Position numbers and translations under genes: made by a program. The notes beneath the pieces were generated by a model. That model was not told where the DNA came from and ran no database searches. It saw nothing but the letters and a program-made list of their open reading frames with translations. Source: Candidatus Bathyarchaeota archaeon (GTDB lineage Archaea; Thermoproteota; Bathyarchaeia; Bathyarchaeales; Bathyarchaeaceae). From it: DNA of 38,271 nucleotides. The stretch covers positions 1 to 38,271 of the forward strand of contig JAOUPL010000001.1 in assembly GCA_029879825.1 (NCBI GenBank), given 5' to 3'. Positions 52 through 37,809 of the stretch are shown here, piece after piece. How positions within the stretch are numbered: the first letter of the stretch is position 1; every line of letters begins with the position of its first letter.

Positions 52-126
52 GGGGCCGTCGGCTAGCATGGTCTAGGCTCTGAGCCTCGGGCGCTCGGGA
101 CCCCGGTTCAAATCCGGGCGGCCCCA
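52..126 (+). tRNA. tRNA-Pro (anticodon CGG), intron-less
   Basis: Hand-folded cloverleaf, 75 nt. Acceptor GGGGCCG/CGGCCCC, T arm CCCGG-TTCAAAT-CCGGG, anticodon stem TGAGC/GCTCG with loop CTCGGGC, discriminator A. Confidence 0.8.
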
Positions 127-269
127 CATTAAAAAGCAAAATTCTAAGATAAGCGACTAGCTTAGCATCGCAGCCACATGTAATTTTGTATCTTTAGCTT
201 TTAAAAAACCTTTAAAAGCGAGGTTTAGTAATGCAGAGGGGAGTTTTTGTGTTGTATGGGTGAGGGAAA

Positions 270-7302: not shown

Positions 7303-7655
7303 AACAAACCTAGTGTTACCTTTAACATGGCATATGCGCTCGCTGTGCGTCTAGGCTTAACTTTCCCTATTTTTGTCCCTTAACGCGTGCCGATTTGCTG
7401 GTTGCACGTGCCGTCCCATCGGCATTTTGTCCTATTTCGATACGATGCCTTGAAATCGCATTGTCTTTTGAATTTGCAGTTTGGTAGTTTAGATTTCTGG
7501 TTTGACATTGTGGCTTGACGTTGACTCTGACATTTAATATGAGTTATGAATTGCAAATCAGAATTCAAAATCCATTAAGATGCCAAAAGCTCGCGCTAAC
7601 CAGCAAAACCAAGCTTATAACATTATTTTCCTTATCTTATAAGGAGGAGAGAGCT

Positions 7656-10221: not shown

Positions 10222-10360
10222 GCTCCGGTAGAAGAGAGGACACGGCTCCTCTTCTGCCAAATATAGCCAGGTTAAACCTCTTCGGACCAAGTATTTCGGC
10301 CTTTCGACGCTCACCGGAAGAAAGCCGAAGACCCGGGTTCGAATCCCGGCCGGAGCACCA
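10222..10360 (+). tRNA. tRNA-Glu (anticodon UUC) with encoded CCA and about three introns
   Basis: Acceptor GCTCCGG/CCGGAGC, T arm CCGGG-TTCGAAT-CCCGG, discriminator A + CCA. Anticodon arm TCGGC-CTTTCG[16-nt intron 10307-10322]A-GCCGA. The D arm ATAT...GTAT only assembles if 10231-10260 (30 nt) and about 10269-10283 (15 nt) are removed. Exons sum to 75 nt + CCA. Confidence 0.6.
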
Positions 10361-11719: not shown

Positions 11720-12038
11720 GGCGGCGGGTCTTAGGCGGGGGGCTAGGGGTCCCCTGAACCGTAAACCCTCTATAGGACGGGCTGAGAGCCTTGGCGAGGC
11801 GTCAAAGATCGTCAGGATTCCCCAGTCCTCTAACCTTGACTATCCGTCCCTTGGGGCTGGCGGTCGTGGAGCAACCTTCGTAGGGAGGCTGTGGACCGCG
11901 TTTGCCAGGCGAACCTGGCCAGGCCCGGGAGGGAGCAACCTAAGCTTGGACGTTCAGCGCTTGAGGGGTTGCGGGTACGAGTAAAGAGGTTGAGGAAACT
12001 GGCGAAAACTGGGTTTCGAACCAAGGTGACTCGCCGCC
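11720..12038 (+). ncRNA. Signal recognition particle 7S RNA
   Basis: About 319 nt and GC-rich. The termini pair (GGCGGCGGGTC / GACTCGCCGCC). Alu-domain-like GGGCTAGGGG near the 5' end. Helix-8 motif CCAGGCCCGGGAGGGAGCAACC. ORFs on both strands here are GC artefacts. Confidence 0.8.
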
Positions 12039-19410: not shown

Positions 19411-20541
19411 TTAGATTTCTGTGAAGGTTAACAAATTTACCTGCAATGGTTGCTTTATTGCCTCTGAGACGCGAGCAGCCACGAGGAACTTGATGTTCTT
19501 TTCAGCTGCAACATCTACGAGTCTTTGAGTTATAACACCGTCAAAGATCACTGTGTCCACATCCTTTATTCCCTGAAGTTTCTCTGCGAGTTCACTTACG
19601 GGCAGTCGCTCTATTTGCTGCATCTTATTGTTTAGTAGCACAGCCTCTAAGGTTCCTTCCAGTTCTTTTGCGGTTTTAACAATTTGTTGAGGAACTAGTA
19701 TTTTCCGCCGCGCTTTCTTGGCTTTTATTTTTCCTATGGGAACCTTTTCTTTGAGGGCTTTTTCGATTTTTTTGGGGCTTAACTCTTCTACTTCTTTACC
19801 TGGGGGCGCTCTGGCAATGTACTTAACGTCGGTTACCTGCAGCAGTTCTTTGAGGATAAGGTCTCCGCCTCGGTCTCCGTCGAGGAATGCTGTGGCTTCT
19901 TTTTCTCGGCATAGTTTTATGATGGTTTGCGGGATTTTGGCGCCTTCGAGAGCGATGACGTTTTGTATTCCAGTTTTTAACATGTTTATAACGTCTGCTC
20001 TTCCTTCTACTATGATTATTTCCTTTGCACTTTCGATGTCTGGTCCCGCTGTTAATCCGTCAGGTCCATATTTTTCGACTCTTGCCAACCTTAATGTTTC
20101 TGAAACTTCTCTAAAAATTTCATCTGTGCCAGGCATGGTTTCGAGGGTCCATTCATGGAGAACCTCCTTCGCTCTGTCTATGATTGTCCTCCGCCTTGCG
20201 TCGCGTATATCTTCTATTTTATCCAAAGTGACCTTTGCTTCGCATGGTCCTACCCTGTTTATGCTTTCGATGCTCGCTGCGATGATTGCTGTGGAGACTC
20301 TGTCTAGGCTTGTTGGTATGGTTATCGTGCCGGTTGTCTTATCCTGTTTTGATTCTAAACTGATTTCTATTCTTCCTATTCTTCCCGATTTCTGGAGTTC
20401 TCGGAGGTCAAGTTCGGGTCCAAACAAGCCTTCTGTTTGTCCAAAAACTGCTCCGATGACGTCTGGTTTTTCAACCACTCCCTCCACTTCGAATCGGGTT
20501 CGTATAACATACTTTACCGTAACGGTTTGTGACGATTTCAT
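19411..20541 (-). CDS. dnaG: Archaeal DnaG primase (Toprim)
   Basis: N-terminus YVIRTRFEVEGVVEKPDVIGAVFGQTEGL is characteristic of archaeal DnaG. Toprim IIVEGRADV ... DGDRGG. Confidence 0.85.
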   Translation of the reverse strand: MKSSQTVTVKYVIRTRFEVEGVVEKPDVIGAVFGQTEGLFGPELDLRELQKSGRIGRIEISLESKQDKTTGTITIPTSLDRVSTAIIAASIESINRVGPCEAKVTLDKIEDIRDARRRTIIDRAKEVLHEWTLETMPGTDEIFREVSETLRLARVEKYGPDGLTAGPDIESAKEIIIVEGRADVINMLKTGIQNVIALEGAKIPQTIIKLCREKEATAFLDGDRGGDLILKELLQVTDVKYIARAPPGKEVEELSPKKIEKALKEKVPIGKIKAKKARRKILVPQQIVKTAKELEGTLEAVLLNNKMQQIERLPVSELAEKLQGIKDVDTVIFDGVITQRLVDVAAEKNIKFLVAARVSEAIKQPLQVNLLTFTEI

Positions 20542-20630
20542 TATTTTTCACCTCAATCATGAATTTGTCCTCACTATGTTTAAGAGGCCTTCTAGCTTTA
20601 ATCTGTTTGCACCTATTATACTTTACGACT

Positions 20631-21044
20631 TTATGCTCCTACTTTTTTCCTTAAAGTTTCCAGATAGGTTGCCAAACCTTCTATGTCCTTGACATCGTGC
20701 CCCACAAGGCCGAGAAGCTCTCTCCAGAAAAGAAGGTTGGGGGTTATTTTCATTTCTTCTAGGCGACGAGCTAAACGGTTGGTCCATTCCTTGCCATGTC
20801 TGTCAAAGTCCATTAGAAGGATGACTTCACGTTTTCCTTTTCCTTCTATTTCGCCGAGAACGTCGAGGAACGATTTTCCAGAGGATTTTGCTGAGATGAT
20901 GTCGCCTTCTAAACCCAGCTTATGTAGGGCGTTGATGTCGTTTCTTCCTTCCACTATTATTGGGGTGCCTTTGGTTGATTCTGTTGCGAGTCTTTCTAAA
21001 AGTTTAAGGATTTTCTCCAGTTTTTTCTCTGATTTGGTTGACAA
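20631..21044 (-). CDS. Small Toprim-domain protein
   Basis: IIVEGRNDINAL ... LLMDFDRHG, a Toprim E...DxD pattern. 137 aa. Confidence 0.6.
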   Translation of the reverse strand: MSTKSEKKLEKILKLLERLATESTKGTPIIVEGRNDINALHKLGLEGDIISAKSSGKSFLDVLGEIEGKGKREVILLMDFDRHGKEWTNRLARRLEEMKITPNLLFWRELLGLVGHDVKDIEGLATYLETLRKKVGA

Positions 21045-21049
21045 CGTTT

Positions 21050-22167
21050 CTACCTTGTTACCTCTATCTCCATCATTTTTTCTAACAGTTGTGGGTGCCT
21101 ATGGAAATGTTCTCTAACTGGCTTCAGAATTTCGATGAGGGCTTCTGTGACGCCGTTTTTTAGGTCTAGCGGATGGATTTTGCCTTCGACATAGGCTCTT
21201 TCCATTTTCTCATAGTTTTCGAAGTTTTCTGGGCCTCCGTATTTGGTTGGTCTCGGTATCTCTAGATTTTCTCTTTCGGCGAACACTACATATTTTGATA
21301 GTTCAAGTATGGGGTTTCCTTTCACCTGTTTGGGGGGGCAGTAGGCTTCTTTTATTTTGGTCTTTATGTCGTCGGGGGTGTCGTGGACGAATATGCAACT
21401 CTTGGGTATGCTTTTGGACATTTTTGAGCTGATCTGTATGTTTAGGTCCGCGTTTTCGTCAAATTCTTTTTCAACTGTTTCGGGTCCTTGGAGTCCCATG
21501 AGGAGATGGGTGTGGACGCACGAGGGTTTTTTCCAGCCGAGTTTTTCAGCTACGTCTCTTGCCAGCATGTGAGCCTTTCTTTGGTCTATGCCTGCGCAGG
21601 CTACGTCAAGGTCCATGTGAAAAATGTCTGCCGACTGCATACAGGGATAGTATACCCACGCCGTTTCGACGTCGGTCATGCTCATTTCACGACCCATAAT
21701 TGGTAAGGCGCGCCACGTTCTCTGCAGCGAAGCGCCTTTCGCTATTCGAATGACTTTTTCCCAGTATTCTATGTCTTTGGCTATGTCTGAAGCCCAGAGG
21801 TATTCCACGCTGACCGGTGTTACTCCGAGGGCTGTAAAGCATTGTTTTATGTATTCGCCGCAGGTATGGATTTTTTCCATGTCTCCGCCTAGTTTGTTGT
21901 TTATCCATGAGTGCCAGTCAGCGAGAAAGACGATGAAATGGAAGCCAGCTTTTGTCATGTCTTTGATTTTGGATGTGCAGACTAGGCCCATTCCGATGTG
22001 CATTATTCTGGGTGACCGTGAAGGTTCACGGCTCACTGTCCAGAGCACTCGAAGCCCCAGTAGGCTCTGGGCTTAGTCTTTGTTTCCAGTAATGTGCGGA
22101 TTTCTTGGGGAATTATGATTTCTTCTACGTTTCTTGTGACAAGGTCTATTCTTTGTTCTAAATCCAA
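21050..22167 (-). CDS. tyrS: Tyrosyl-tRNA synthetase, interrupted by a 32-nt intervening sequence
   Basis: Exon 1 (22167..22038, TTG start) encodes MDLEQRIDLV...KPRAYWGFECSG and then a stop. Track ORF 21050..22048 continues in another frame with MHIGMGLV...FLADWHSWINNKLGG...KMSKS...LHPLDLKN. Removing 22006..22037 restores one 361-codon frame. Confidence 0.8.
22006..22037 (-). other. Candidate BHB (bulge-helix-bulge) intron within tyrS mRNA
   Basis: RNA: CUGG(ACA)GUGAgCCGUGAAccUUCACGGUCAC-CCAG(AAU). This is a 4-bp helix flanked by two 3-nt bulges plus an inner hairpin. Excision of 32 nt is in frame. Confidence 0.55.
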
Positions 22168-22211
22168 GCAGATCGCCCTCTTACATCCTCATTCGCTTTT
22201 GTTAACTTAAA

Positions 22212-22463
22212 AGTTCTTGTCGCGGGCGTTGTGTCCCACGTAACTAACACTCAACCTCACAGTTGGAGCCTTACGCTCCTCTCAGGTGAGCTCTCTCTGA
22301 CGTGGGCTGGTAGGCGCCCGCGCCCACCGTGTCCCATGCCTGGGTAAACCCTTCGTCAACGGTAGATGAAATCACCAGCCTCTGTTGGGTCCGTCTGCAT
22401 GAGCCCTGTTAAGGTTCCGGTGGGATTATGCTCCAGCCTAGTGTCATCGCCACTAAGAAGACT
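22212..22463 (+). ncRNA. Structured RNA, RNase P RNA-like (tentative)
   Basis: GC-rich spacer with no ORF. GGCTGGTA, GGGTAAACCC (22342-22351) and GGTAGATGAAATCACC (22361-22376) resemble RNase P CR-III/IV. The termini AGTTCTTGTCGCG / CGCCACTAAGAAGACT can pair. Candidate P4 is GTGTCCCAC (22231) with GGTGGGATTAT (22419). The universal GGAAAGUCC is not seen. Confidence 0.4.
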
Positions 22464-22512
22464 GGAATCCATGGACATAAGATTTTCCTAAACCGGGAAG
22501 CTGGATAGGCTT

Positions 22513-24180
22513 TTAGCGTGTTGTTTTTATGATTCTTTGCAGGTCTATTTCGAAGGCGCTTGTTGGATTTTCTAGTTCAAAATTGTTGAGAACCTCTGGG
22601 TGGATTTCTCCTACAACGCCGATCTTTCTGCCTTTAACATAGATCGCAGCCGCTCTCCCCTGCAAGAAACTTGGATGCTTAGTCCCTTTGATCTCCCAGT
22701 TTTTCAAGTCGAGATTGGCGAGCAAAGCTTCCACGTAAGACTTTATCTCAGTGAAGTTGGCTGTTGGGTGGGAGGAGACGCATGCTACGTGAAGCCTTCG
22801 TTCTGTGCGGGTTTCAGCCTTCTCGTTGATTTCTATCACGTCGGAAACTTCGAACATTCGTTGGGGATATGCTTGGTGTTTGTTGTCTGCCAGATTCTTC
22901 ATCAAGCGGGGCAACAAATCGTTTCGAACTATGGAATACTCTGTGGAAACGGGGTTCGCCAGCCTAATCATCTTTCCAGCCTTCCTTCTCATTTTTTGAT
23001 AGTGGTCAACCTCGTTGGCGAGAATGAAGTTCATAGCTTCCACGAAGCCTAGTCCAACCATTATTTGTCGAACGTAATTCGCCACTGCACTCACTTCGTG
23101 TTCTCTGCCCGTTGTCACAGTCGTCGGCTTCGTGGGTTTCAGTCTAAAATAGCCGTAGCCGATGGCAACCTCCTCAACCAAGTCAATTTCATGCATTATA
23201 TCAATTCGATAGGCGGGAATCAGAACCTCCAAAACTCCTTTGCTTATCCTTCTTGCGTCAAGTCTAGACTTCTGGAGGGCTTGTATAGTTTTGGTTTCTG
23301 AAAGCTTGAGACCCAACAACGCGTTGGCATAGTCAACCCTCAACTCCATCTGCTGAGGCGTCAAGTCAGGAGTAACTAAGACGTGATCAGAGTATCCAAC
23401 GCGAACACTTTCTATGGTTGCGCCCATGTCTGCCAACGCTGTGACCAAAACGTTCAAGCTTCTTGAAATGGCGTTAGGCTCCGTACCAGTCACATCGATG
23501 AACAGGTTTCGCGTTCGACTGTCCACCCGTGTCAGTTCGCCATTGATTATCGGGGGAAAAGAGAGAACCCGCCCCAACTTGTCCACGATTAGGGGATACC
23601 TTGAGGCCCAATCCACGTGACCTTTATACGCGATTCCCTTCTCATGCTTCTCCAGAATTTCTTGCAGAGTCATCTCTTCGGTCTTGTCTAAGGGGACAAA
23701 TTTGACTTCATTTGGGGCGCTGGTTGTGTAAGCGAAGGGAGGTTCAACAGCGTCTAAGTTGTGCACTCCGATAGAAGCTTTTTTCCGGTCCCTGCCCACC
23801 CCCCAGTGAAGATCCTCCTGCATCTCCATAAGTTCTCTAACAGTATCATAGTCAAGCTTCACGTTGCGTATAACAGCGGATACGACGTAGGGCCTAACCT
23901 CAGCCACCGTTGGATCCACTTTCAAAACAATTTTTCCTTCCTTCACCTCGTACTTCGGCAGTCCAGTCTCCCAACCCATCAGTCCACGGAAAGCTCTGGC
24001 CACTCCACCGTAGCTTGAAAAGTCCACACGGTTTGGGTTAAACTCGATTTTCACGTAGTCTGGTCCGATTTCGTCTGTGTCAACGCCCAGCCAAGGAAGC
24101 CATTTAGCCATCTCTTCTACACTAAGGGGCCGCCCGACGAACGAGGAGAAGCGGTCTCTGTCTAGAGTTAACGCTGGCAT
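22513..24180 (-). CDS. pheT: Phenylalanyl-tRNA synthetase beta subunit
   Basis: 555 aa with archaeal-type B3/4 and B5 domain layout. Overlaps the pheS stop by 13 nt. Confidence 0.9.
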   Translation of the reverse strand: MPALTLDRDRFSSFVGRPLSVEEMAKWLPWLGVDTDEIGPDYVKIEFNPNRVDFSSYGGVARAFRGLMGWETGLPKYEVKEGKIVLKVDPTVAEVRPYVVSAVIRNVKLDYDTVRELMEMQEDLHWGVGRDRKKASIGVHNLDAVEPPFAYTTSAPNEVKFVPLDKTEEMTLQEILEKHEKGIAYKGHVDWASRYPLIVDKLGRVLSFPPIINGELTRVDSRTRNLFIDVTGTEPNAISRSLNVLVTALADMGATIESVRVGYSDHVLVTPDLTPQQMELRVDYANALLGLKLSETKTIQALQKSRLDARRISKGVLEVLIPAYRIDIMHEIDLVEEVAIGYGYFRLKPTKPTTVTTGREHEVSAVANYVRQIMVGLGFVEAMNFILANEVDHYQKMRRKAGKMIRLANPVSTEYSIVRNDLLPRLMKNLADNKHQAYPQRMFEVSDVIEINEKAETRTERRLHVACVSSHPTANFTEIKSYVEALLANLDLKNWEIKGTKHPSFLQGRAAAIYVKGRKIGVVGEIHPEVLNNFELENPTSAFEIDLQRIIKTTR

Positions 24181-25679
24181 ACCGGGGTCCTCCTCATCCA
24201 GCCCAGATCGTTTTTGTACAAGAGCCGTATGTCTTCAATGCCAAGCTTGAGAATTATCAGGCGTTCCAAGCCTCCTCCCCAGGCTAAAACTGGATATTTT
24301 ATGCCAAGGGGAGCCAAAACTTCTGGGCGAAAGATGCCCATTCCACAGAGTTCCACCCAAGTTTTGAGCTCTGGAACGTAAACCGTGGACTGCATTGAAG
24401 GCTCCGTGTACGGGAAGTAGCTGGGCCAAAACTGCACTTTTTTCAATCCAAGTTTAAGGTAGAACTCCTTCAAAGTTCCCATCAAGTCTCGCAGGGTCAC
24501 CTTTTTGTCCATGACTATTCCTTCAATCTGATGGAATTCCGCGAGGTGTTTGTAGTCTACCTTCTCGTTGCGGTAGACACGGTCCACGGAAAAAACCTTC
24601 ACCGGCGGCTCCTTATGCTCAGCGAGGTAGCGGATGGTCACCGCGGTTGTGTGGGTCCTCAGTATCAGCCTCTTCGCCTCGTCAGCACTCCAAGTGTACT
24701 CCCAACCTCTCGAACCCGTTATCCAACCGTCTTCATGGGTTTTCGCCACCGCATCCACAACATCTTTTTTGGGCAGTTTTCCCTTTCTTGGCTGCGCCAG
24801 ATAGAAAGTGTCCATCATCTCCCTAGCCGGATGATCTTGAGGTTGGAACAAGGCATCGAAGTTCCAGAAGGCTGTTTCAACGATGGAGCCTCGAATTTCT
24901 GTGAAGCCCATCTCTAGGAAAATTTCCCTAACCCTCTGGATTATCTGCTGTGCTGGATGAATTTTTCCAGGATGAATTATTGGACCAGGCGCGGTTACGT
25001 CAAACCGTCTGAGTTTTGCCTTTCGCCATCTCCCTGTTCGGATGAGCTCAGGAGTTAGTTGACTGACTTCCTCAACGATTTCTATTCCTTTCTCAGCCAA
25101 GTCCCAGCCGGCATCCGTTAATTCCAGTTCACGCAGGGTTTTCTTACTCACCTTCACAAGTCTTCGTTTTTTTAGAAGGGAAACAGCCTTTTGCAGTTCT
25201 TGGCTCAAATCCTCAACAATTAAAGGTTCCTTTTCAGCTAGGAGAGATAGAAGTTTTTCGTCATTTCCAGTCAGCGGTTCCCTCAAGGATTTCAGTACAC
25301 GTTCCTTTTTCTTTATGGTCGCCCAGTCCTTACGGCTAAGCCACCCCAAGGCTATGGTTAAGAACTTCTTTTCTAACCCTGCAGCATCAGCAACATCGTC
25401 AACAGAAGCCTCGCCGCCCAACTTGATCAACGAGTTGATTAAACGTCTTTCGGGAAGCCTTTTTTTCGCGTGATAACTTCCCTCTTTAGTTAAAGCGATT
25501 GCGGTTTGCTTTCTTTCATGCGTTCTTACTAGTTTCTTTGTGGTAAGGGAGAGGGCAGCACGCATGACTGCTGCATGAGCTAGGCCACTAACCTTGACTA
25601 ACTGGTCGACGGGGCCTCTCCCCCTTAGCCTTTCCAAGGCAAGTAGGGTTTTTTGTTCGTTCTCTCGAAGTTCAGCCAC
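24168..25679 (-). CDS. pheS: Phenylalanyl-tRNA synthetase alpha subunit
   Basis: 503 aa. N-terminal wHTH repeats and class II core motifs (HPAREMMDTFY, FRNE-like YRNEKVD, GMGIFRPEV...AWGGGLERL). Confidence 0.9.
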   Translation of the reverse strand: MAELRENEQKTLLALERLRGRGPVDQLVKVSGLAHAAVMRAALSLTTKKLVRTHERKQTAIALTKEGSYHAKKRLPERRLINSLIKLGGEASVDDVADAAGLEKKFLTIALGWLSRKDWATIKKKERVLKSLREPLTGNDEKLLSLLAEKEPLIVEDLSQELQKAVSLLKKRRLVKVSKKTLRELELTDAGWDLAEKGIEIVEEVSQLTPELIRTGRWRKAKLRRFDVTAPGPIIHPGKIHPAQQIIQRVREIFLEMGFTEIRGSIVETAFWNFDALFQPQDHPAREMMDTFYLAQPRKGKLPKKDVVDAVAKTHEDGWITGSRGWEYTWSADEAKRLILRTHTTAVTIRYLAEHKEPPVKVFSVDRVYRNEKVDYKHLAEFHQIEGIVMDKKVTLRDLMGTLKEFYLKLGLKKVQFWPSYFPYTEPSMQSTVYVPELKTWVELCGMGIFRPEVLAPLGIKYPVLAWGGGLERLIILKLGIEDIRLLYKNDLGWMRRTPVCQR

Positions 25680-25893
25680 TAATTTTGCCTCCTCCTAGAC
25701 TTCGCCGTAACAGGGATCAGTAAACTGGTTTAGCATTGTAATAAGAATGTTTTAAAGGTTTCAACCTCAGATGCCCTAAACTAGTTGAAAAGGAAGTTAA
25801 AGGCGAAAGATTGGAAATTGGTAGGGCATCCCTTCACCTTCACTAGTGAGTACCGACAAAGATTATTTATAATTTGTCTGTCACCTTCGATGG

Positions 25894-27021
25894 CTACGCG
25901 ACCTGCATTATTTCCCTTGCTTTGTCAACGAATTTTCGCCGTTTTCGTTTATGATCCTTCACGAAGTTTAGAACGAGTTCTGTCGTCTTAGCTTTATGTT
26001 CTCCGCACAAGAGTTTCCCGCTTTTACAATCGTTGTAAACCTTCACAACGTCGTCGTCTTTTTCGACAAAATGGTACATTTCAATCTCGTATATGGGACA
26101 AATCTCCGGCACTCCGCCCAGTCTCCTCTGCTCTTCCACGGTGGGCCGTCCGCCGGTGAAGGCGTTTGAAATTTTCTTTGCTATAGATTCGGGGTTTTCG
26201 TGTAAAGTGAAGTAGCTCATGGAGTTTCGTTTAGCCATTTTTGGAGAACCGTCCAATCCCTTCATGATTTTGTGGTAGGTGGAGGAAGGTGAAACAAAAT
26301 TGAACTTGCGGCGAAACTTGCTGGCGAGGTCCCGAGTTAAACGTAGGTGGGCGTCTTGGTCAATACCTACAGGGACGACTGTTGGTTTTGGTCCGTCAAA
26401 ATCTTCGAGTTGAGGCATCAGTATGTCTCCCGCCTGTACGAGGGCGGACAAGTAGAGTCCAATGTTCCGTTCACCGTAGATGGCTTTCATTGTAGCCAGA
26501 GTTACGCTTCTTCCAAAAAGAACTGCTAAGTCTCTAACCCGCTGTTCCTTATACTGTCGATAAATGAAGCCACGCTTCGGGTCGAATCCTAGGGCGAGTA
26601 AATCTGCAACGTTGCCTGCAGCAATTTTTTCGCTTTTTTCGAAGGGGATTTTGTTGTCTTCGTAGGCTTCGATGTCTGCGATACAGTAGAAGGCAGTGGC
26701 TCCCTGTTGTTGGAAATAGATGATTTCCCGGGCGGTCATGAGGGTTCCTAAGTGAAACTCTCCTGTTGGTTTGATGCCACTCATTACTGCAAACTTTTCG
26801 TGGCTTTTCATATTTTCTAAGACGCTTTCGAAATCTCTGTGTCCGAAGATGACGCCGCGCCTCATATACATGCTTGGGTTCGGTATCTCCGCCAAAAGAG
26901 ATTTAAATCGCTGTATCCCGAACTCTTCGCAGAGGCGGTTGTAGTCCTCAACTACCGTTGTTCCCCAAGGGTCAAGCACCGTTTTCCTGTTACCAGCCGT
27001 CGACAACTTTTGACGTCCCAC
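25894..27021 (-). CDS. trpS: Tryptophanyl-tRNA synthetase (archaeal/eukaryal type)
   Basis: LDPWG...YNRLCEEFGI N-terminus, GIKPTGEFHLGT (HIGH region), GIDQDAHLRLTRD, KMAKRN in the KMSKS position. Confidence 0.85.
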   Translation of the reverse strand: MGRQKLSTAGNRKTVLDPWGTTVVEDYNRLCEEFGIQRFKSLLAEIPNPSMYMRRGVIFGHRDFESVLENMKSHEKFAVMSGIKPTGEFHLGTLMTAREIIYFQQQGATAFYCIADIEAYEDNKIPFEKSEKIAAGNVADLLALGFDPKRGFIYRQYKEQRVRDLAVLFGRSVTLATMKAIYGERNIGLYLSALVQAGDILMPQLEDFDGPKPTVVPVGIDQDAHLRLTRDLASKFRRKFNFVSPSSTYHKIMKGLDGSPKMAKRNSMSYFTLHENPESIAKKISNAFTGGRPTVEEQRRLGGVPEICPIYEIEMYHFVEKDDDVVKVYNDCKSGKLLCGEHKAKTTELVLNFVKDHKRKRRKFVDKAREIMQVA

Positions 27022-31163: not shown

Positions 31164-31288
31164 GGGGTTGCCAGCTTTCCCGACTTCGCGTGGCCGAAGA
31201 CCACACTAACACCGGAAACGGAGCGCGGTTTAACTTCTGAGTTCGGAATGGGATCAGGTGGGTCCCGCGCCCTATGGCCGGCAACCCC
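31164..31288 (-). rRNA. 5S ribosomal RNA (stand-alone)
   Basis: The reverse strand reads GGGGTTGCCGGCCATAGGGCGCGGGACCCACCTGATCCCATTCCGAACTCAGAAGTTAAACCGCGC...GCTGGCAACCCC. The termini pair. 125 nt. Confidence 0.85.
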
Positions 31289-31376: not shown

Positions 31377-31599
31377 GGGGCCGTAGTCTAGCTACGCCTC
31401 GTCATCTGATGAGGCGCTGGAAAGGGATGACGACAGTTGATGCGAAGTAGTGTCAACCGTTAAGGGCTCCAGAACAGAATTCACGGGTTTGCTGACCGTG
31501 TCGGGATGAAGAAATTCTGGAGCGGTGAAGAAACCCGTAGGAACGGGGATGAACTGTTCCGGGTAAAGGTCGTCGGTTCAAATCCGGCCGGCCCCACCA
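31377..31599 (+). tRNA. tRNA-Trp (anticodon CCA) with encoded CCA and about four intervening sequences
   Basis: Acceptor GGGGCCG/CGGCCCC, A73, CCA. T arm GTCGG-TTCAAAT-CCGGC. Anticodon loop CTCCAG|A at 31467-31472 + 31533. The stem AC..GGG/CCCGT needs removal of about 31435-31463. Other inserts lie at about 31393-31417 (D loop hairpin), 31473-31532 (37/38) and about 31540-31567 (variable loop). Exons sum to about 78 nt. Confidence 0.65.
31473..31532 (+). ncRNA. Box C/D-like guide element inside the tRNA-Trp 37/38 intron
   Basis: The order is a 12-nt guide, D' CUGA (31492-95), C' AUGAAGA (31506-12), a 12-nt guide, then D-like GUGA (31525-28). The fifth guide nt upstream of D pairs with C34. 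The fifth upstream of D' pairs with nt 39. Box C is degenerate. Confidence 0.5.
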
Positions 31600-32495
31600 C
31601 AAGCCGAACCGGCCCCGCCCGCGCGAAGATCTTCGGCACACTGTGGGAGCTGAAGAAGCGGGGCTACTGCGACATCACCTTGAAGACGAAAGGCGAACGC
31701 CTGAGGTTTCTGGCAAGGCACGTGGACCTGGATGACCCGGAGGCTGTGAAAGGGTTCATCGCAGAACAAACAAGCTGGTCCAATGGCTACAAACAGAGCG
31801 TAGCATACGCTTACGACAACTATGTGAAAACCAACGGCTTGCATTGGACTCTGCCACACTTCCGAGTGGAAGATAAACTGCCCAAGATTCCAACCGAGGA
31901 AAAAATCAACCAGATAATCGTAAGGGCCAGAGGCAAATATGTCCTGGTTTTCAGCATCCTCCGGGACACCGGCATGAGGCCCATCGAACTCGAAAGGACC
32001 AAAGTTAGAGACATAGACTTGGATACAGGAGTTATCACCGTCCGCACGGCGAAAGGCGGCTTAGGACGATCACTGAAGGTGAAGACGCAGACGCTGGCCA
32101 TGCTGAAGGAATACCTCGGGAAGCACGGCTTCGGGCTGAACGACCAGCCTTTTCCGAAGAGGAAGAAGATGACGGGGCGCTGGGTCAGGCTGAGGAACAC
32201 GGTCGCGGGGAAGCTGAAGGACGCCTCTTTCAGGGCGATCAGGCTCTACGACCTGAGGCACTTCGTCGGGACGACGACCTACCACAGGACCAAGGACATA
32301 GTCTACACCCAGAGGGTGCTGGGGCACAGGAGCCTGAAGAACACGATGAGGTATGTCCAACTGATAGACTTTGAAGAAGATGAGTTTACTTCTGCGGTAG
32401 CTAGGAACTTACAGGAAGCTTGCCAACTGATAGAAGTTGGCTTCGAATACGTAACAGAAATAGACGGTGCAAAACTATTCAGGAAAAGAAAGTAG
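31506..32495 (+). CDS. Tyrosine recombinase / integrase (probably the C-terminal part of an SSV-type integrase)
   Basis: Catalytic pattern TGMRPIEL (R), TAKGG (K), LYDLRHF (RH), LGHRS (H), MRYV (Y). The frame is open from 31464 through the tRNA 3' exon. The track ATG at 31506 sits inside the tRNA intron. The first start after the tRNA is TTG at 31680. Confidence 0.75.
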   Translation: MKKFWSGEETRRNGDELFRVKVVGSNPAGPTTSRTGPARAKIFGTLWELKKRGYCDITLKTKGERLRFLARHVDLDDPEAVKGFIAEQTSWSNGYKQSVAYAYDNYVKTNGLHWTLPHFRVEDKLPKIPTEEKINQIIVRARGKYVLVFSILRDTGMRPIELERTKVRDIDLDTGVITVRTAKGGLGRSLKVKTQTLAMLKEYLGKHGFGLNDQPFPKRKKMTGRWVRLRNTVAGKLKDASFRAIRLYDLRHFVGTTTYHRTKDIVYTQRVLGHRSLKNTMRYVQLIDFEEDEFTSAVARNLQEACQLIEVGFEYVTEIDGAKLFRKRK

Positions 32496-32509
32496 CTTTG
32501 TGCACCTAC

Positions 32510-32522
32510 CATGCATGCATGC
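32510..32522. repeat. CATGCATGCATGC alternating Pu/Py repeat, copy 1
   Basis: Exact 13-mer, repeated at 33526-33538. Shorter versions occur at 32738-32750 and 33710-33721. Confidence 0.8.
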
Positions 32523-32735
32523 GATTCGCATACGCCCTGCCCGGTTTCTTCCCGCCCCCCTGCGCAGGACTTAGTTAGAGCAAATAACATGTTAACGCGC
32601 ACGCGATGCAAACAGTTGGAGAGCTTTTTGAAAACCTAGGGGAAAAACCAGGGAGCTAAGTGAAAACATCGACCTGTATCACAAACTGATACTCTCAAGA
32701 ATGAAACCTACGAAAGACGAGTAATATCCAGTTCT

Positions 32736-33482
32736 GTGCGCATGCATGCAAAAAACGACTTGCGCGCGTGTATGAAACAAGAAAACGTTTGTATACCACC
32801 TGTTGAAACATTGTTATATAGTCAGGTGATTTTATTGGCTGAAAAATGGGATGGAGTGGCATTTCTGAAAAATCGTATTGAAGCAATAGACCAACAATGG
32901 GTTGAAAATGTTCGGAAGACCAAATTCTTTCGAGTGGGTGCCTTTAATCTTCCCCACATGGAACCACAATTGAGACAGGTATATATGGATACTTATTTTA
33001 TCACAATGATGGGTTTTTGGAATGTTTCCATAATAATGCAAGGTGTGTTGTTGGAAACTTTGGTCAAAGAGATAATATTTGCAAAAGAGAAGAAAGAGTT
33101 CCAAAAGCCTTTTGGTGACGCCATTGATAGGTGTGAAAAGAAAGGTTACCTAAGCGATGAAGAGATCAGATTTTTGAGGCGATTCAAGGACGAGATTAGG
33201 AACCCCTATCAACATGTAGATGTCAAGAAGATAGTTGGAGAAAGCAAAGTTCGTGCATGGAAGATCTCGCTTAAAAAGGGCAAAGTAGCGGAGTCATTAC
33301 TTAAAGGGGTCGAAAAAGTGTTTAGAGAAGATGCTGGCCATGGCGAGTTGAAAGGTTATGAAGATATGAGACCCGTTGGAGTAGTCATTAAAGATGAGAT
33401 TGACAGACGATTGGCATTGCCTCTTTTCGGTCAAGTTGAAAAATTAGTTAGAAGTTTGTCAACAAAACATTTCAAGGTATAA
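32736..33482 (+). CDS. Hypothetical protein (weak DUF4145-like C-terminal motif)
   Basis: 248-aa ORF; the real start is probably ATG 32772. FLRRFKDEIRNPYQH resembles the RN..H signature of DUF4145, from memory only. Confidence 0.4.
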   Translation: MRMHAKNDLRACMKQENVCIPPVETLLYSQVILLAEKWDGVAFLKNRIEAIDQQWVENVRKTKFFRVGAFNLPHMEPQLRQVYMDTYFITMMGFWNVSIIMQGVLLETLVKEIIFAKEKKEFQKPFGDAIDRCEKKGYLSDEEIRFLRRFKDEIRNPYQHVDVKKIVGESKVRAWKISLKKGKVAESLLKGVEKVFREDAGHGELKGYEDMRPVGVVIKDEIDRRLALPLFGQVEKLVRSLSTKHFKV

Positions 33483-33525
33483 CAAGGCGCGCGCGTTAGA
33501 CTCACTTTCCTTTGTCCCAGTAATT

Positions 33526-33538
33526 CATGCATGCATGC
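33526..33538. repeat. CATGCATGCATGC alternating Pu/Py repeat, copy 2
   Basis: Identical to 32510-32522. The two copies flank ORF 32736..33482. Confidence 0.8.
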
Positions 33539-33806
33539 TTGCTATATCCACACAAAGTTCACACGAAACCCTTCCAGACCCCCGCACACAAACCTTCATG
33601 TTGACAAACCTAGTGGTAATCTTTTCTATTGTTAGTCTAGCTTTTCTTTTTGCGTCAAGAACAGAATTTGCATCGCATGTGCAAGAATTGTGCTAGAAGC
33701 ACGCCTAATCATGCATGCGCGAACGACACATTATAATTTATAATACTTTTTCTAAATTCACAAACTATATTTCTAATTTCTTGAATATTCCAGAAAGGTT
33801 GAGCAA

Positions 33807-34214
33807 TTGAGACTATCAGAATTTATGCACATGCATAAAGGCGTAATCATCGTTCTCGGATTAATCATCGTTGTGGCAGTTGGATACATCGCAGTTAATC
33901 CCAATATAATTGGATTACCTACGCAAATAAGAATCATGGACGGAACTTGGGAAGATATAACCTTTCATGGACACGAATATCGGATTCTAGTAGAAAAAAG
34001 TGAACCAGTTACGTTTGCTAATTTTTCTTCAAGTAATTCTTCTTCATGGATTTTGTATATTTTCCTTACTGAAGGCTGGGATTTCCCAAGAATTGGAGAT
34101 GGAACATATCCAAATATCAAAGAAGGAGACATTATCTTCTACAAAGGTGTGAACATTAAAGTCAACAATATCGATGACTATAGTGTAACATTGTTGGTTA
34201 GTTGGGGAGAATGA
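33807..34214 (+). CDS. Small membrane-anchored / secreted hypothetical protein
   Basis: N-terminal TM helix GVIIVLGLIIVVAVGYIAV. Likely ATG at 33825. Confidence 0.4.
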   Translation: MRLSEFMHMHKGVIIVLGLIIVVAVGYIAVNPNIIGLPTQIRIMDGTWEDITFHGHEYRILVEKSEPVTFANFSSSNSSSWILYIFLTEGWDFPRIGDGTYPNIKEGDIIFYKGVNIKVNNIDDYSVTLLVSWGE

Positions 34215-34257
34215 TGTTTCGCGTGCGTCTTTCCATTAACCGTTAACCGTTGTCCGT

Positions 34258-34276
34258 GGTGGTGGTGGGTGGTGGG
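34258..34276 (+). repeat. (GGT)n G-rich tract
   Basis: GGTGGTGGTGGGTGGTGGG, preceded by tandem TTAACCG x2 at 34236-34249. Confidence 0.7.
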
Positions 34277-34645
34277 TCAAATTTTAACCGCCAAAAGCGT
34301 GCGCTCAGGAGTTAGCCACAGCCCGCAACCAACACACTCGTAAACTCCCGGGGTGCCTCGGACCCAGCCCGCTGTATTTTGGGATGTTGCCCAAGGGTGT
34401 CTGCGGGTTCCGCGTGGAGGGATATACCTGCAGACACATCAACAATGGTAGTTGCATTGAGTCAAATTTCCGGGGAAAACAGCATTAAGTAAAATGGGGG
34501 CCCCAAACTAGAAACCAAATGGAAAGGCCGCGGATTTTGACGCGCGCGCACACGCGAAACAGCTAAAGTGCCCACTTAGATAATTTAATAAATACTTGGA
34601 AATAAGTAGCATTTGTAGTTTAGACGTGTAGGTTGGTCTTGGGTT

Positions 34646-35284
34646 TTGGTCGAAGAAGCTCTTGTTTTTTGGGTCGGAGCGGCGATATTCGGATTCACCT
34701 CATTGATGTTTGCTGCATTAGAAAAGCGAGGACATGGTGGCGAAATGGTTTTCGGATCCAATATCTTTGTAAGTTTTATCACAACGATCTCGTACGTAGT
34801 CATGGCTTTGGCGTTAGGTACTACAATTGCAGAGAATGGACAACCAATCTATTGGACAAGATGGCTTTTCTACATCGCCAGTTGTAGCATACTAACCCTG
34901 GACATCGCCTTCATCGCACGAAAGCCAGCTTCCAAAAAGGTTGAAGTCGCGTTATTCACTGGACTTACAATGTTCTGCGGTTTCTTGGCAAGCATAATTG
35001 TCACGGCTGATCGTTGGTGGTTCTTTGCTCTAAGTACGGCCGCTTATTTCGGCGTGCTCTACACACTATCTAAACGATTAGGAGATGAGAGCGTCAACGT
35101 AACCTCCATAATGTGGTTTGTGATGGTAACTTGGTCTCTGTTTCCAGTAGTTTGGGTGCTTGCGCCAACTGGCTTTGGAGTTCTCACGACATTTGTTGAG
35201 GCTATACTCTATCTTGCACTCGACCTAATAACCAAGGTAGCTTTCGGCTTGTATATTTCAGCACGACAGGACATTGGCAAGTAA
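34646..35284 (+). CDS. Type-1 microbial rhodopsin, schizorhodopsin-like (F-S-D motif)
   Basis: Seven TM segments. PIYWTRWLFYIASCSILTLD aligns to bacteriorhodopsin PIYWARYADWLFTTPLLLLD. WSLFPVVW aligns to WSAYPVVW. LDLITKVAFG aligns to LDVSAKVGFG, giving the Schiff-base Lys with Asp at K-4. TTG start. Confidence 0.8.
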   Translation: MVEEALVFWVGAAIFGFTSLMFAALEKRGHGGEMVFGSNIFVSFITTISYVVMALALGTTIAENGQPIYWTRWLFYIASCSILTLDIAFIARKPASKKVEVALFTGLTMFCGFLASIIVTADRWWFFALSTAAYFGVLYTLSKRLGDESVNVTSIMWFVMVTWSLFPVVWVLAPTGFGVLTTFVEAILYLALDLITKVAFGLYISARQDIGK

Positions 35285-35403
35285 CAATCATAATCAAGCG
35301 CGCGCATGAATACTGTGCAAGTTTAGCATCCGACCTACATCGCTAAAATACATCTTGCTAGTAACCAAAACACAGTTATAACCTCTGCATTCTACATTAC
35401 TTT

Positions 35404-35919
35404 ATGGTCAAAGAAGTGAAATATAGCCTCATCAAAAAACTAGACAATGTGGAAATCAGGCTCTACAACAGCTTGATAATCGCCAAAGTTGACGGTTATG
35501 GTGATGCAGGCTTTAACCTTCTCTTCAACTATATCACAGGCAACAATACTCAAAAAACCACTTTAGAAATGACTTCACCCGTAATATCACAAAACATTGA
35601 AATGACTGCTCCCGTCCTATCAGAAAAAGACTCGATAGCATTCGTTATGCCTGAAAAATACACCTTGGAAACAACACCAAAACCTAATGATGAACGAATC
35701 AAAATCCAACAAATCCCAGAAAGATATGTAGCCGCACTAAGATTCAGCGGTCGCTGGACACCTTCAAATTTCGCAAAAAAATCAAAACAACTATTAAAAG
35801 AACTACAAACAGCAAAAATAAAAACAAGAGGAAACATTTTTGCAATGCGTTACAGCGGACCCTTCACACCATGGTTCATGCGGAAAAACGAAGTAGCAAC
35901 AGAAGTCCAACTCACCTAG
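35404..35919 (+). CDS. SOUL haem-binding family protein
   Basis: VEIRLY..., GFNLLFNYITGNN...LEMTSPV...IEMTAPV, and RFSG pattern. 171 aa. Confidence 0.75.
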   Translation: MVKEVKYSLIKKLDNVEIRLYNSLIIAKVDGYGDAGFNLLFNYITGNNTQKTTLEMTSPVISQNIEMTAPVLSEKDSIAFVMPEKYTLETTPKPNDERIKIQQIPERYVAALRFSGRWTPSNFAKKSKQLLKELQTAKIKTRGNIFAMRYSGPFTPWFMRKNEVATEVQLT

Positions 35920-36112
35920 AACTCTATACCTGCGCGTTCGATTTGGGTATGTGTGGGTGGTTAATTTTCAATCACTTACACTAGCTGGCATGCGTACGCA
36001 GGGCTGAAAAAACATATTGGTAGCGCGCACTTTTCTTGAACACAAGTATCTTAGCGATACTGTGCATGCAGATCGCAAGTCATAAAAGCAGTCTCATACA
36101 GACTTTAGGAAC

Positions 36113-36937
36113 ATGAATAGAACAGAAAGATTAGAGAATATTGCGAAATCACCGATTTCATTTGGCTATCTTAGAAAGTTCAACATGGGAGCAGGCATTC
36201 TTCATTTTGCTCAAGGAATAGTTATGGTAGCTCTTGGGCTTTCTAAAGCCTACAACCGTGACATATTCACTTTCTATTTGAAGTTCAACATAGTGAGCAC
36301 TGACCCGCCCGTTATCCAAGTTGGGCCAGACCCTAAAATCCTGCTGACAATAGGCTACATAGGAGTCGTGGCCGCTCTCTTTCCCCTAATCTCTGCAATA
36401 GCACATTTCACAATCGCGTTTGCGAAGAACAATGCCTACAATGAAAATCTGAAAAAGGGCATGAACCCATACAGATGGTACGAATATGCCCTTTCAAGCT
36501 CAATAATGATATTCCTCATCGCTTCGTTCGTAGGAGTGTGGGAGCTATGGTCACTCGTGATGATATTTGTCTTGAACGCAATGATGATAATGTTCGGATA
36601 TCTTATGGAGAAAATCAATCAGTACACTGAAAAGACTGATTGGTCATCATTCATCCTTGGATGCATTTCAGGCGGAACACCCTGGATAGCGATATACGCT
36701 TATTTCATCGCAGCCATAAGCAGCGTGTCGCAGAACGTTCCCACATTTGTGTACCTGATACTGTTCATCTACTTCATTCTGTTCAACATCTTCGCAGTCA
36801 ACATGGTGTTGCAATACAAAGGCATCGGAAGGTGGAAGGATTACCTTTACGGCGAAAGAATCTACATAATCCTGAGCTTCGTTGCAAAAAGCATTCTGGC
36901 TTGGCTGGTATTCGTAGGAATCTATGCACCTTTCTAG
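36113..36937 (+). CDS. Heliorhodopsin
   Basis: Closely parallels my recollection of HeR 48C12. NPYRWYEYALSSSIMIFLIA matches NIFRWVEYSLSSSVMIVLIA. LQYKGIGRWKDYLYGERIYIILSFVAKSILAW matches LQYKGKGKWSNYLRGERAYIVLSLVAKSALAW, with the Schiff-base Lys and Glu counterion present. Confidence 0.85.
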   Translation: MNRTERLENIAKSPISFGYLRKFNMGAGILHFAQGIVMVALGLSKAYNRDIFTFYLKFNIVSTDPPVIQVGPDPKILLTIGYIGVVAALFPLISAIAHFTIAFAKNNAYNENLKKGMNPYRWYEYALSSSIMIFLIASFVGVWELWSLVMIFVLNAMMIMFGYLMEKINQYTEKTDWSSFILGCISGGTPWIAIYAYFIAAISSVSQNVPTFVYLILFIYFILFNIFAVNMVLQYKGIGRWKDYLYGERIYIILSFVAKSILAWLVFVGIYAPF

Positions 36938-37122
36938 CAGGCGTACGTACTCCTCAAATCAGACTGTTCCAGTATGCTTGTGAGAGATAGTATAGGTTAC
37001 TATCTGCAAGCACACACATGCGCGCGTGCTAGGTGTATGAATTGTAGGCGGAAGAAAAATATTAAAAGAAATATCACCGACCTACGATTATTACGACTGG
37101 ATTATGAGTGTGATAAAATCAA

Positions 37123-37809
37123 ATGGCAAGCGGTTCGCTCGAATTTCGGGCAACAAACCTTGATTGCCTTTTGGCTCTTGTGATCGCATTCGGCCTACCC
37201 GTGGCGTGCGGGCTCCTGTACCCACTGACGGGCGCACTTGTCCCTCTAACACTGTATTATGGCTTGTGCTGCGTAGGCATCGTGAAGTGGCGGCGTGGAA
37301 CACTTGAGTATCGTCGTCCGAAGACTTGGGCCTTCCCCATTTTTCTGACGATGATCGCAATGCAGCTGATCCAACAGATCATTGGTTTTGTGCTAGTGCA
37401 ACCTGTGCCAAGCCCCGACGCAGTCGGAGTGCTCATCTCCCTTATTGTTTGGGCACCACTCAATGCTTTAATGGAGCAGTTGAGTTGGATCTACTGCTAC
37501 GATGCATTCGCCTCACGCTTCACTAAGAAGAGCCAGAGAATAGTGGGGAACATCGTCGGCCTCGTGTTGATGCTATCTCTAGTTGGACTTATCCATGTGC
37601 TCTTCTGGGCGAAATTCACGCCAGCATATTCACCGATCGGTAGCTTCTTCTTAGTTTTCATGGCCCTGCAATTCGTAACCACCGGTCTCTACATCATGCT
37701 GTATCGAAAAGTCCGCTCCATGATCCCTCTGGCATTAGTTCACATCATATCTGATGCGGGCTTGGTTCTCATTCCAGGATTCTCAATCTTCCCGTACCTT
37801 CTGCCATAG
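37123..37809 (+). CDS. Polytopic membrane protein, degenerate CPBP (CAAX protease)-like
   Basis: At least 6 TM segments. Motif-like MEQLSW (versus EExxxR), VGLIH (FxxxH) and HIISD (HxxxD). The first motif lacks the second Glu and the Arg. Confidence 0.3.
   Translation: MASGSLEFRATNLDCLLALVIAFGLPVACGLLYPLTGALVPLTLYYGLCCVGIVKWRRGTLEYRRPKTWAFPIFLTMIAMQLIQQIIGFVLVQPVPSPDAVGVLISLIVWAPLNALMEQLSWIYCYDAFASRFTKKSQRIVGNIVGLVLMLSLVGLIHVLFWAKFTPAYSPIGSFFLVFMALQFVTTGLYIMLYRKVRSMIPLALVHIISDAGLVLIPGFSIFPYLLP

Follow-up and report, generated by a model that had tools for sequence, protein, structure and literature searches.

A candidate tRNA-type intron in the tyrosyl-tRNA synthetase gene of Bathyarchaeia

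The tyrS locus

The stretch of DNA that we analysed (the window; 38,271 nt) comprises positions 1–38,271 of contig JAOUPL010000001.1 from a Candidatus Bathyarchaeota archaeon (GCA_029879825.1). Its gene for tyrosyl-tRNA synthetase (TyrRS), tyrS, is broken by a short insert that we propose to be a bulge–helix–bulge (BHB) intron, the type of intron found in archaeal tRNA genes. On the minus strand, a TTG at 22167 starts a 44-codon open reading frame (ORF), MDLEQRIDLVTRNVEEIIIPQEIRTLLETKTKPRAYWGFECSGQ, that ends in a stop, and a second ORF, 21050..22048, reads RIMHIGMGLV, FLADWHSW and KMSKS in another frame. The insert itself, 22037..22006, is 32 nt long and reads AGTGAGCCGTGAACCTTCACGGTCACCCAGAA. 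A first-pass annotation of this DNA, made from the sequence alone, had described the TTG as the opening of a TyrRS N terminus that runs into a stop, with the rest of the enzyme in a different frame, and was correct in all coordinates and sequences.

Deletion of 22037..22006 leaves a single 361-codon ORF that reads GFECSG-L-MHIGMG across the junction and has 26 residues between SG and FLADWH, which bears out the earlier claim that removal of exactly 32 nt restores both the sequence and this spacing. The insert is positioned after the first base of codon 44, one codon ahead of the HIGH motif, and the predicted exon join, GGA C/UA AUG (here and below, the slash marks the cut or junction), rebuilds a Leu codon. 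Spliced tyrS RNA is predicted to read ...UCUGGAC/UAAUGCAC... at the junction, and the corresponding region of the protein ...AYWGFECSGLMHIGMGLVCTSK. The spliced product matches the NCBIfam TyrRS equivalog NF006330 in one uninterrupted alignment (444.4 bits, cutoff 220; residues 1–356 on model positions 1–340 of 342). Its best match in the PDB is the TyrRS of Aeropyrum pernix (2cya, E = 2e-105), and that alignment is gapless at the junction (ECSGLMHIG versus EPSGVAHIG); both MHIG and KMSKS are intact. A TATA-like sequence, TTTTAAGTTAA, lies about 40 nt upstream of the TTG.

Translation of the unspliced tyrS mRNA would meet a UGA stop two codons past Gly43. Exon 1 contributes a β-strand that presumably bears the tyrosine-binding Tyr (Y32 in the M. 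jannaschii enzyme, Y36 within AYWGFECSG here). Because a protein made from exon 2 alone would be without this N-terminal strand, it should be inactive, and active TyrRS should need splicing.

Conservation of the insert among relatives

We compared 160 tyrS loci, 80 from species-representative genomes (the best genome matches) and 80 from metagenome contigs. An insert occurs at the identical nucleotide in 25 loci including the window (22 distinct sequences), from at least eight species-level genomes and many unrelated Joint Genome Institute (JGI) metagenome projects; among the carriers are the published Bathyarchaeota BA2 (LIHK01000055) and the closed chromosomes CP070791 and CP070749. Its position and boundaries are fixed and its length varies, with 30, 31, 32, 33, 34 and 35 nt all seen, so that all three frame phases occur. 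An in-frame stop follows one or two codons past Gly43 in 25/25 loci, and removal between the boundaries ...CUGGA(C/U)/A ... A(A/U/G)/U... gives a 361- or 362-aa ORF in each, with no further disruption of the frame in any. The cut rule put forward in the first-pass annotation, 2 nt into each 3-nt bulge, therefore yields a full-length ORF and the Leu codon of the intronless homologues at every one of the 25 loci.

Metagenome assemblies carry a general possibility of error, and nothing more than this favours an assembly or sequencing artefact, in which the 32 nt would be absent from the real genome. The 24 other loci, which come from independent assemblies made in different projects, with different assemblers and from different samples, have the insert at the same nucleotide and show sequence variation and covariation within it; among the 120 best protein clusters, about 39 represent truncated calls of this gene. 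We regard an artefact as vanishingly improbable.

The junction that removal creates is the one found in genes that have no insert. The junction peptide WGFECSGLMHIGMGLV matches nine intronless loci exactly, and the junction nucleotides GGA CTA are those of the closest intronless genes. The split codon encodes Leu in all cases, in four synonymous forms (C/UA, U/UA, C/UG and C/UC), a pattern for which the only sensible explanation is that the three nucleotides are read together. A length that ranges over 30–35 nt and all phases rules out both translation of the insert and a single conserved frameshift. The TTG start is common to 23 of the 25 intron-bearing loci and 119 of the 133 intronless homologues. 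Both exons are under purifying selection, with a ratio of non-synonymous to synonymous substitution rates (dN/dS) among intron-bearing loci of 0.17 for exon 1 and 0.12 for exon 2.

These values argue strongly against a decaying pseudogene, that is, a tyrS inactivated by a small insertion while the real TyrRS is encoded elsewhere, which would account for the broken frame and the in-frame stop that follows. A pseudogene also fits poorly with an insert that sits at the same nucleotide across TyrRS lineages up to about 35–40% apart in protein, with the intactness of HIGH and KMSKS and with the absence of other frame breaks from the 25 loci. The window holds no second tyrS, and two closed insert-bearing chromosomes each have one tyrS locus among the 80 best genome matches, a set that is not exhaustive. 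Decay of the gene is accordingly a very improbable explanation.

Structure and covariation

The 62-nt region around the insert folds at −27.2 kcal/mol (z = −4.85), and none of 200 dinucleotide shuffles is as stable. Its minimum-energy fold gives an outer helix, the CUGG/CCAG central helix, the 3-nt bulge ACA and an inner hairpin (Table 1), the last three as drawn in the first-pass annotation. A textbook register is available too, with the bulge AAU on the 3′ side and an outer helix of U:A, C.A, G:U, U:G and G:C. Across the distinct sequences, every fold has a 3-nt 5′ bulge (ACA or AUA) and every sequence can form the 3′ bulge AAU; the motif is of the relaxed type on its 3′ side. The outer helix had been called weak, which is right for the window and partly a peculiarity of it, as 14/22 distinct sequences have five contiguous pairs (U:A, U:A, G:U, U:G and G:C).

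We counted pairs from the two splice sites, which makes the structure counts independent of any alignment. The central helix H is paired in 22/22 sequences, and the first five pairs of the inner helix are kept in 22, 22, 22, 21 and 19 of the 22. In L074, the Ser-Gly codons UCU GGA have become AGC GGA and the intronic CCAG has become CCGC, two compensated pairs that leave the protein unchanged. Two further compensated pairs distinguish L043, in which the inner helix GUGAGCG/CGCUCAC is replaced by GCAAGCG/CGCUUGC, and in L110 the C.A of the outer helix is a C:G pair. Overall, 90.9% of cells are paired, against 21–50% in slid registers, and pairs changed on both sides number seven, against 1.0 ± 0.9 in shuffles (0/500). 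RNAalifold, with no structure imposed, recovers the central helix, the 3-nt 5′ bulge and the inner helix, whereas the hairpin loop varies freely in length and sequence. It is structure rather than sequence that is conserved in the tyrS insert.

This covariation bears on a split gene, in which the two ORFs would be translated separately, into a peptide of 44 aa and, from Met45, a protein of 317 aa that assemble non-covalently into an active TyrRS, and the hairpin would be an intercistronic spacer. Such an arrangement agrees with the first codon of exon 2 (AUG in 21/22 distinct sequences, GUG in one), with the stop 1–2 codons after exon 1 in 25/25 loci, with purifying selection on both parts and with the two ORFs listed by gene callers. 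A spacer has no reason, however, for the compensated pairing of exon-1 codons with its own 3′ end seen in L074, nor any need of a Leu codon kept around the gap in four synonymous forms. Because Met45 is also Met in most intronless homologues, it is no dedicated start codon; no Shine–Dalgarno-like motif lies ahead of it, where the sequence reads GGUCACCCAGAAUA-AUG, and the break would separate strand 1 from the HIGH helix of the Rossmann fold. We consider a split gene improbable.

Translational recoding, either a programmed frameshift or a bypass over the hairpin of the gene 60 type, is less probable still. In T4 gene 60, ribosomes take off close to a stop codon and the gap opens with a stable hairpin; the nearby stop and hairpin of the tyrS insert resemble these. 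With lengths in all three phases there is no single conserved frameshift. A bypass would need a landing GGA to match the take-off GGA, and the 3′ end of the gap has none; ribosomes that landed on the following GGA, which lies in HIG, would lose the HIGH motif. The pairing of CCAG with exon codons and the rebuilt Leu codon would also go unexplained.

By itself, a BHB motif in the window carries no weight as evidence. A generic BHB scan (4-bp H, 3-nt bulges, outer helix h of at least 3 pairs, inner helix h′ of at least 3) returned 197 matches against 130–159 (about 146) in shuffles, and its h filter rejects the tyrS intron itself. A genome-specific scan (intron starting with A and ending with AA, h′ of at least 4) returned 41 against 22–44 (about 33). 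A scan for the motif alone can neither nominate nor validate introns here, whereas its combination with an exactly restored frame, a position conserved in 25 loci and covarying helices goes far beyond chance expectation.

Intron-rich tRNAs of the window

The intron-containing tRNAs of the window serve as an internal control, to which we applied the cut rule used for tyrS (4-bp helix, 3-nt bulges, cleavage after the second bulge nucleotide). The first-pass annotation had remarked on intron-laden tRNAs, and the case is stronger than it claimed, with four introns in tRNA-Trp and three in tRNA-Glu. Each of the seven introns has AA as its last two nucleotides, and in six the first nucleotide is A; the tyrS intron (AC/A...AA/U) matches on both counts. 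Six of the seven lie at or near non-canonical positions, several have an outer helix of 0–1 bp, and most combine a long inner helix with almost no outer helix, which is the relaxed architecture of the tyrS intron. Because introns with such weak outer helices sit at non-canonical positions of tRNA-Trp and tRNA-Glu, the endonuclease of this genome, whatever its subunit type, would seem to process relaxed BHB substrates routinely.

Standard tools did not resolve these genes. With its intron option, ARAGORN called the tRNA-Glu gene Val(CAC) and the tRNA-Trp gene Pro(AGG) with a single 135-nt insert, both miscalls, and Rfam gave only a weak tmRNA-like fragment at the tRNA-Trp gene. Blind enumeration of intron combinations produced many spurious tRNA calls, and the two genes could be resolved only once the introns with long inner helices had been fixed.

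Two side observations concern the sequences of these introns. Intron 1 of tRNA-Trp holds CUGAUGA, and intron 3 holds CUGA, AUGAAGA and GUGAAGA; these box C/D- or k-turn-like strings recall the guide RNA that the euryarchaeal tRNA-Trp intron contains. The third intron of tRNA-Glu, taken with the two exon bases that precede it (GA/CGCUCACC...), contains the 10-mer GACGCUCACC, which several relatives (L078, L110, L111 and L152 among them) also have in the 3′ half of their tyrS intron. The shared 10-mer could be chance or a hint of a common intron origin. A short, intergenic BHB-like match at 7380..7409 on the minus strand has the central helix (GACG/CGUU) and the A...AA boundaries of intron 2 of tRNA-Trp; its surroundings show no recognizable tRNA-like context, and we rejected it as probably due to chance.

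Predicted splicing of tyrS

On this comparative evidence, 22037..22006 is very probably a BHB intron in the tyrS pre-mRNA, and we infer that it is spliced in vivo. EndA, the archaeal tRNA-splicing endonuclease, would cut both bulges after the second nucleotide, leaving a 2′,3′-cyclic phosphate and a 5′-OH, and an RtcB-type ligase would seal the exons, with the intron released, probably as a circle. Only the spliced mRNA would then give active TyrRS, and the endonuclease would have to accept relaxed motifs outside a tRNA body. A self-splicing group I or group II intron was considered and rejected, as the insert is only 30–35 nt long and there is no Rfam match at the locus (E ≤ 1).

Several results weigh against splicing. 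RNAfold and RNAalifold favour an extra U:A pair with a 5-nt 3′ bulge, a non-canonical 3′ half that is looser than the AAU bulge of the first-pass annotation, and in the window the C.A mismatch at the second pair weakens the outer helix. The first codon of exon 2 is AUG (GUG in L110), from which a truncated protein could formally be translated on its own. In a protein collection of 5.8 billion clusters, the exact spliced sequence is absent by exact look-up, a 90-aa query spanning the junction has no full-coverage match above 72% identity, and no protein with the spliced junction exceeds 77% identity; this collection is mostly genomic, and such absence says little. Neither EndA nor RtcB is encoded in the window. 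Within the window there is no second tyrS; the other class I W/Y synthetase gene there, 25894..27021, is trpS (TIGR00233, 251.6 bits, cutoff 176.75).

A further, rather unlikely proposal is that the tyrS intron acts as a control device that ties TyrRS synthesis to the capacity of EndA and RtcB for tRNA splicing, in a lineage whose tRNAs have as many as four introns each. If so, the conserved stop 1–2 codons into the intron would be a selected part of a splice-or-terminate switch, and so would the central helix in codons 42–43, melted by the translating ribosome; IRE1–XBP1/HAC1 splicing would be the functional analogue. A corollary would be that further protein genes of Bathyarchaeia may hide BHB introns as ‘truncated’ gene calls.

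Relation to known introns and evolution

The closest precedent for the tyrS intron is that of the crenarchaeal cbf5 pre-mRNA (Watanabe 2002; Yoshinari 2006; PMC2738675), likewise short and within the coding sequence of a housekeeping gene. The two cases share a relaxed motif, a patchy, lineage-specific distribution and neglect by gene finders. They differ in host, as the cbf5 intron occurs in Desulfurococcales and Sulfolobales, whereas the tyrS intron occurs in Bathyarchaeia and splits an aminoacyl-tRNA synthetase ahead of HIGH. They differ also in the kind of evidence: reverse transcription PCR, immunodetection and in vitro cleavage with hetero-oligomeric EndA for cbf5, comparative evidence alone for tyrS.

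Non-canonical and multiple BHB introns of archaeal tRNAs (Marck & Grosjean 2003; Sugahara/Fujishima/Kanai; PMC4033280, PMC5829648) have the same geometry and cut rule as the tyrS intron. Those of the window are similar to it in size (15–60 nt) and have its boundary nucleotides (NN/A ... AA/N), and in both kinds the outer helix is weak and the inner helix strong (HBh′-like). Unlike them, the tyrS intron lies in an mRNA that offers no tRNA body, the exon strands of its helices are constrained by codons and its product must be in frame.

In Haloferax volcanii, the mRNA of HVO_1309 is cut by the tRNA-splicing endonuclease at a BHB (PMC7714728), as we propose for tyrS. That intron differs from the one in tyrS in that it lies in an untranslated leader, where it interrupts no reading frame, and in that its host is euryarchaeal. 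The endonuclease of Haloferax is of the homodimeric type and has strict specificity.

Splicing of HAC1 and XBP1 by IRE1 and RtcB offers a more distant parallel, as it too removes a small, non-spliceosomal, frame-changing mRNA intron, so that spliced and unspliced forms give different products. A protein endonuclease cuts at stem-loops and a tRNA ligase seals the exons, as we propose for tyrS. In contrast to our proposal, the nuclease is IRE1 and not EndA and the recognition motif is another one. Splicing of HAC1 and XBP1 is a regulated stress switch.

The first-pass annotation had named cbf5 as the only precedent in a protein gene. For coding sequences this agrees with the literature (PMC7714728, PMC2738675); a BHB intron in the 5′ untranslated region (5′-UTR) of a Haloferax mRNA is known in addition. 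Schwarz et al. (2020) gave cbf5 as the only further reported BHB intron besides their Haloferax 5′-UTR case (PMC7714728). In the full-text literature, we found no report of an mRNA intron in tyrS, in any aminoacyl-tRNA synthetase or in Bathyarchaeia; subscription journals lie largely outside it, and an earlier report is possible. tyrS thus appears to be the second archaeal protein-coding gene with a tRNA-type intron in its coding sequence. The tyrS intron would be mechanistically ordinary for archaeal BHB splicing; its host gene and lineage are rare and apparently unreported.

Neighbour joining of 148 distinct TyrRS sequences groups 19 of the intron-bearing sequences in one exclusive clade and places L152, L078, L043 and the pair L054 and L074 among intronless sequences. 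The tyrS introns have common boundaries and stem sequences, and the simplest reading would be that the intron was inserted long ago and later lost, precisely, several times; on a single-gene neighbour-joining tree, several gains at the same site or a spread by recombination are possible too. For the cbf5 intron, an old gain with secondary losses has been proposed (Yokobori 2009, PMC2738675).

Annotation and implications

Public annotation pipelines list exon 2 alone (21050..22003, minus strand) as a ‘tyrosine--tRNA ligase’ of 317–328 aa (for example, MDH5419052.1) and, on five contigs, exon 1 (22033..22167, minus strand) as a separate, unnamed 44-aa protein. The 90% cluster of the truncated tyrS call has 40 members. 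Among the best 120 clusters of the protein collection, all matches at 80% identity or more are truncated exon-2 calls of about 317 aa (39 clusters), and all full-length 361-aa matches are at 77% identity or less. The gene is assigned to a member of Bathyarchaeia. An essential tyrS is thus mis-modelled in many metagenome-assembled genomes of Bathyarchaeia, and inferences about completeness and metabolism may suffer.

Since 2002, BHB introns in archaeal coding sequences have been known from one gene, cbf5, which reviews up to 2020 continued to list as the sole case (PMC7714728). A second, independent case, in an essential translation enzyme of an abundant environmental lineage, would suggest that the tRNA-splicing machinery serves mRNA more broadly. 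The 22 natural, covarying variants make a ready set of substrates for broad-specificity EndA outside the tRNA context, and the patchy distribution provides a second system for studying how archaeal protein genes acquire and lose introns.

Other features of the window

Coordinates of the tyrS elements and of the other features are collected in Table 1.

Table 1. Features of the tyrS locus and of the rest of the window (coordinates in the window; helix, bulge and intron assignments in tyrS are predictions, with counts over the 22 distinct intron-bearing sequences)
Feature	Coordinates	Strand	Remarks
tyrS exon 1	22038..22167	−	TTG start, 43 codons (MDLEQ...YWGFECSG) plus C, first nt of the split Leu44 codon
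tyrS BHB intron (predicted), 32 nt, AGUGAGCCGUGAACCUUCACGGUCACCCAGAA	22006..22037	−	Removal gives a 361-aa TyrRS; homologous inserts in 24 other loci
tyrS exon 2	21050..22005	−	UA (last 2 nt of Leu44), MHIGMG...KMSKS...EIEVTR, stop
Outer helix h, 5′ strand GUGCU (codons Glu40/Cys41/Ser42)	22044..22048	−	84.5% of cells paired, 22 sequences
Central 4-bp helix H, 5′ strand CUGG (codons Ser42/Gly43)	22040..22043	−	Paired with 22008..22011 in 22/22 distinct sequences
5′ bulge AC/A	22037..22039	−	Predicted cut 22038/22037; AC/A in 18/22, AU/A in 4/22
Inner hairpin h′ (GUGA-g-CCGUGAA / UUCACGG-UCAC, loop CC)	22012..22036	−	First five pairs in 19–22/22
Central helix H, 3′ strand CCAG, intronic	22008..22011	−	Pairing counts and RNAalifold
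3′ bulge AA/U	22005..22007	−	Predicted cut 22006/22005; AA/U in 19/22, AU/U in 2/22, AG/U in 1/22
Outer helix h, 3′ strand AAUGCAC (codons Met45/His46)	21998..22004	−	Pairs with 22044..22048
tRNA-Trp(CCA), four BHB introns	31377..31599	+	Perfect 77-nt tRNA after removal
tRNA-Trp introns	31394–31422, 31435–31463, 31473–31532 (canonical 37/38), 31539–31566	+	
tRNA-Glu(UUC), three introns	10222..10360	+	Perfect 78-nt tRNA after removal
tRNA-Glu introns	10232–10261, 10276–10290, 10308–10323	+	
tRNA-Pro(CGG), intron-free	52..127		Rfam E-value run only, 46.2 bits (gathering 29)
Archaeal signal recognition particle (SRP) RNA	11722..12036	+	Rfam, gathering threshold
5S rRNA	31166..31285	−	Rfam, gathering threshold
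Bacteriorhodopsin-like gene	34646–35284	+	
SOUL haem-binding protein	35404–35919	+	
Heliorhodopsin	36113–36937	+	

tyrS belongs to a cluster of aromatic aminoacyl-tRNA synthetase genes in the order trpS, pheS, pheT and tyrS (19411..27021, minus strand), followed by genes for a small Toprim-domain protein and a DnaG-like primase; the tRNA-Trp gene is 4 kb off. Between pheT and tyrS lies a gap of 345 nt (22168..22512) that is free of ORFs, partly GC-rich and strongly structured. We found no tRNA in it, with or without trial removal of introns, and no Rfam match; it could encode an unclassified small RNA.

In the region 31506..37809 (plus strand), an ORF for a tyrosine recombinase of the phage-integrase family overlaps the 3′ end of the tRNA-Trp gene and is followed by hypothetical ORFs. 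With the genes listed in Table 1, this region looks like an element integrated at a tRNA gene and carrying two rhodopsins, in a group usually seen as dwellers of dark sediments.

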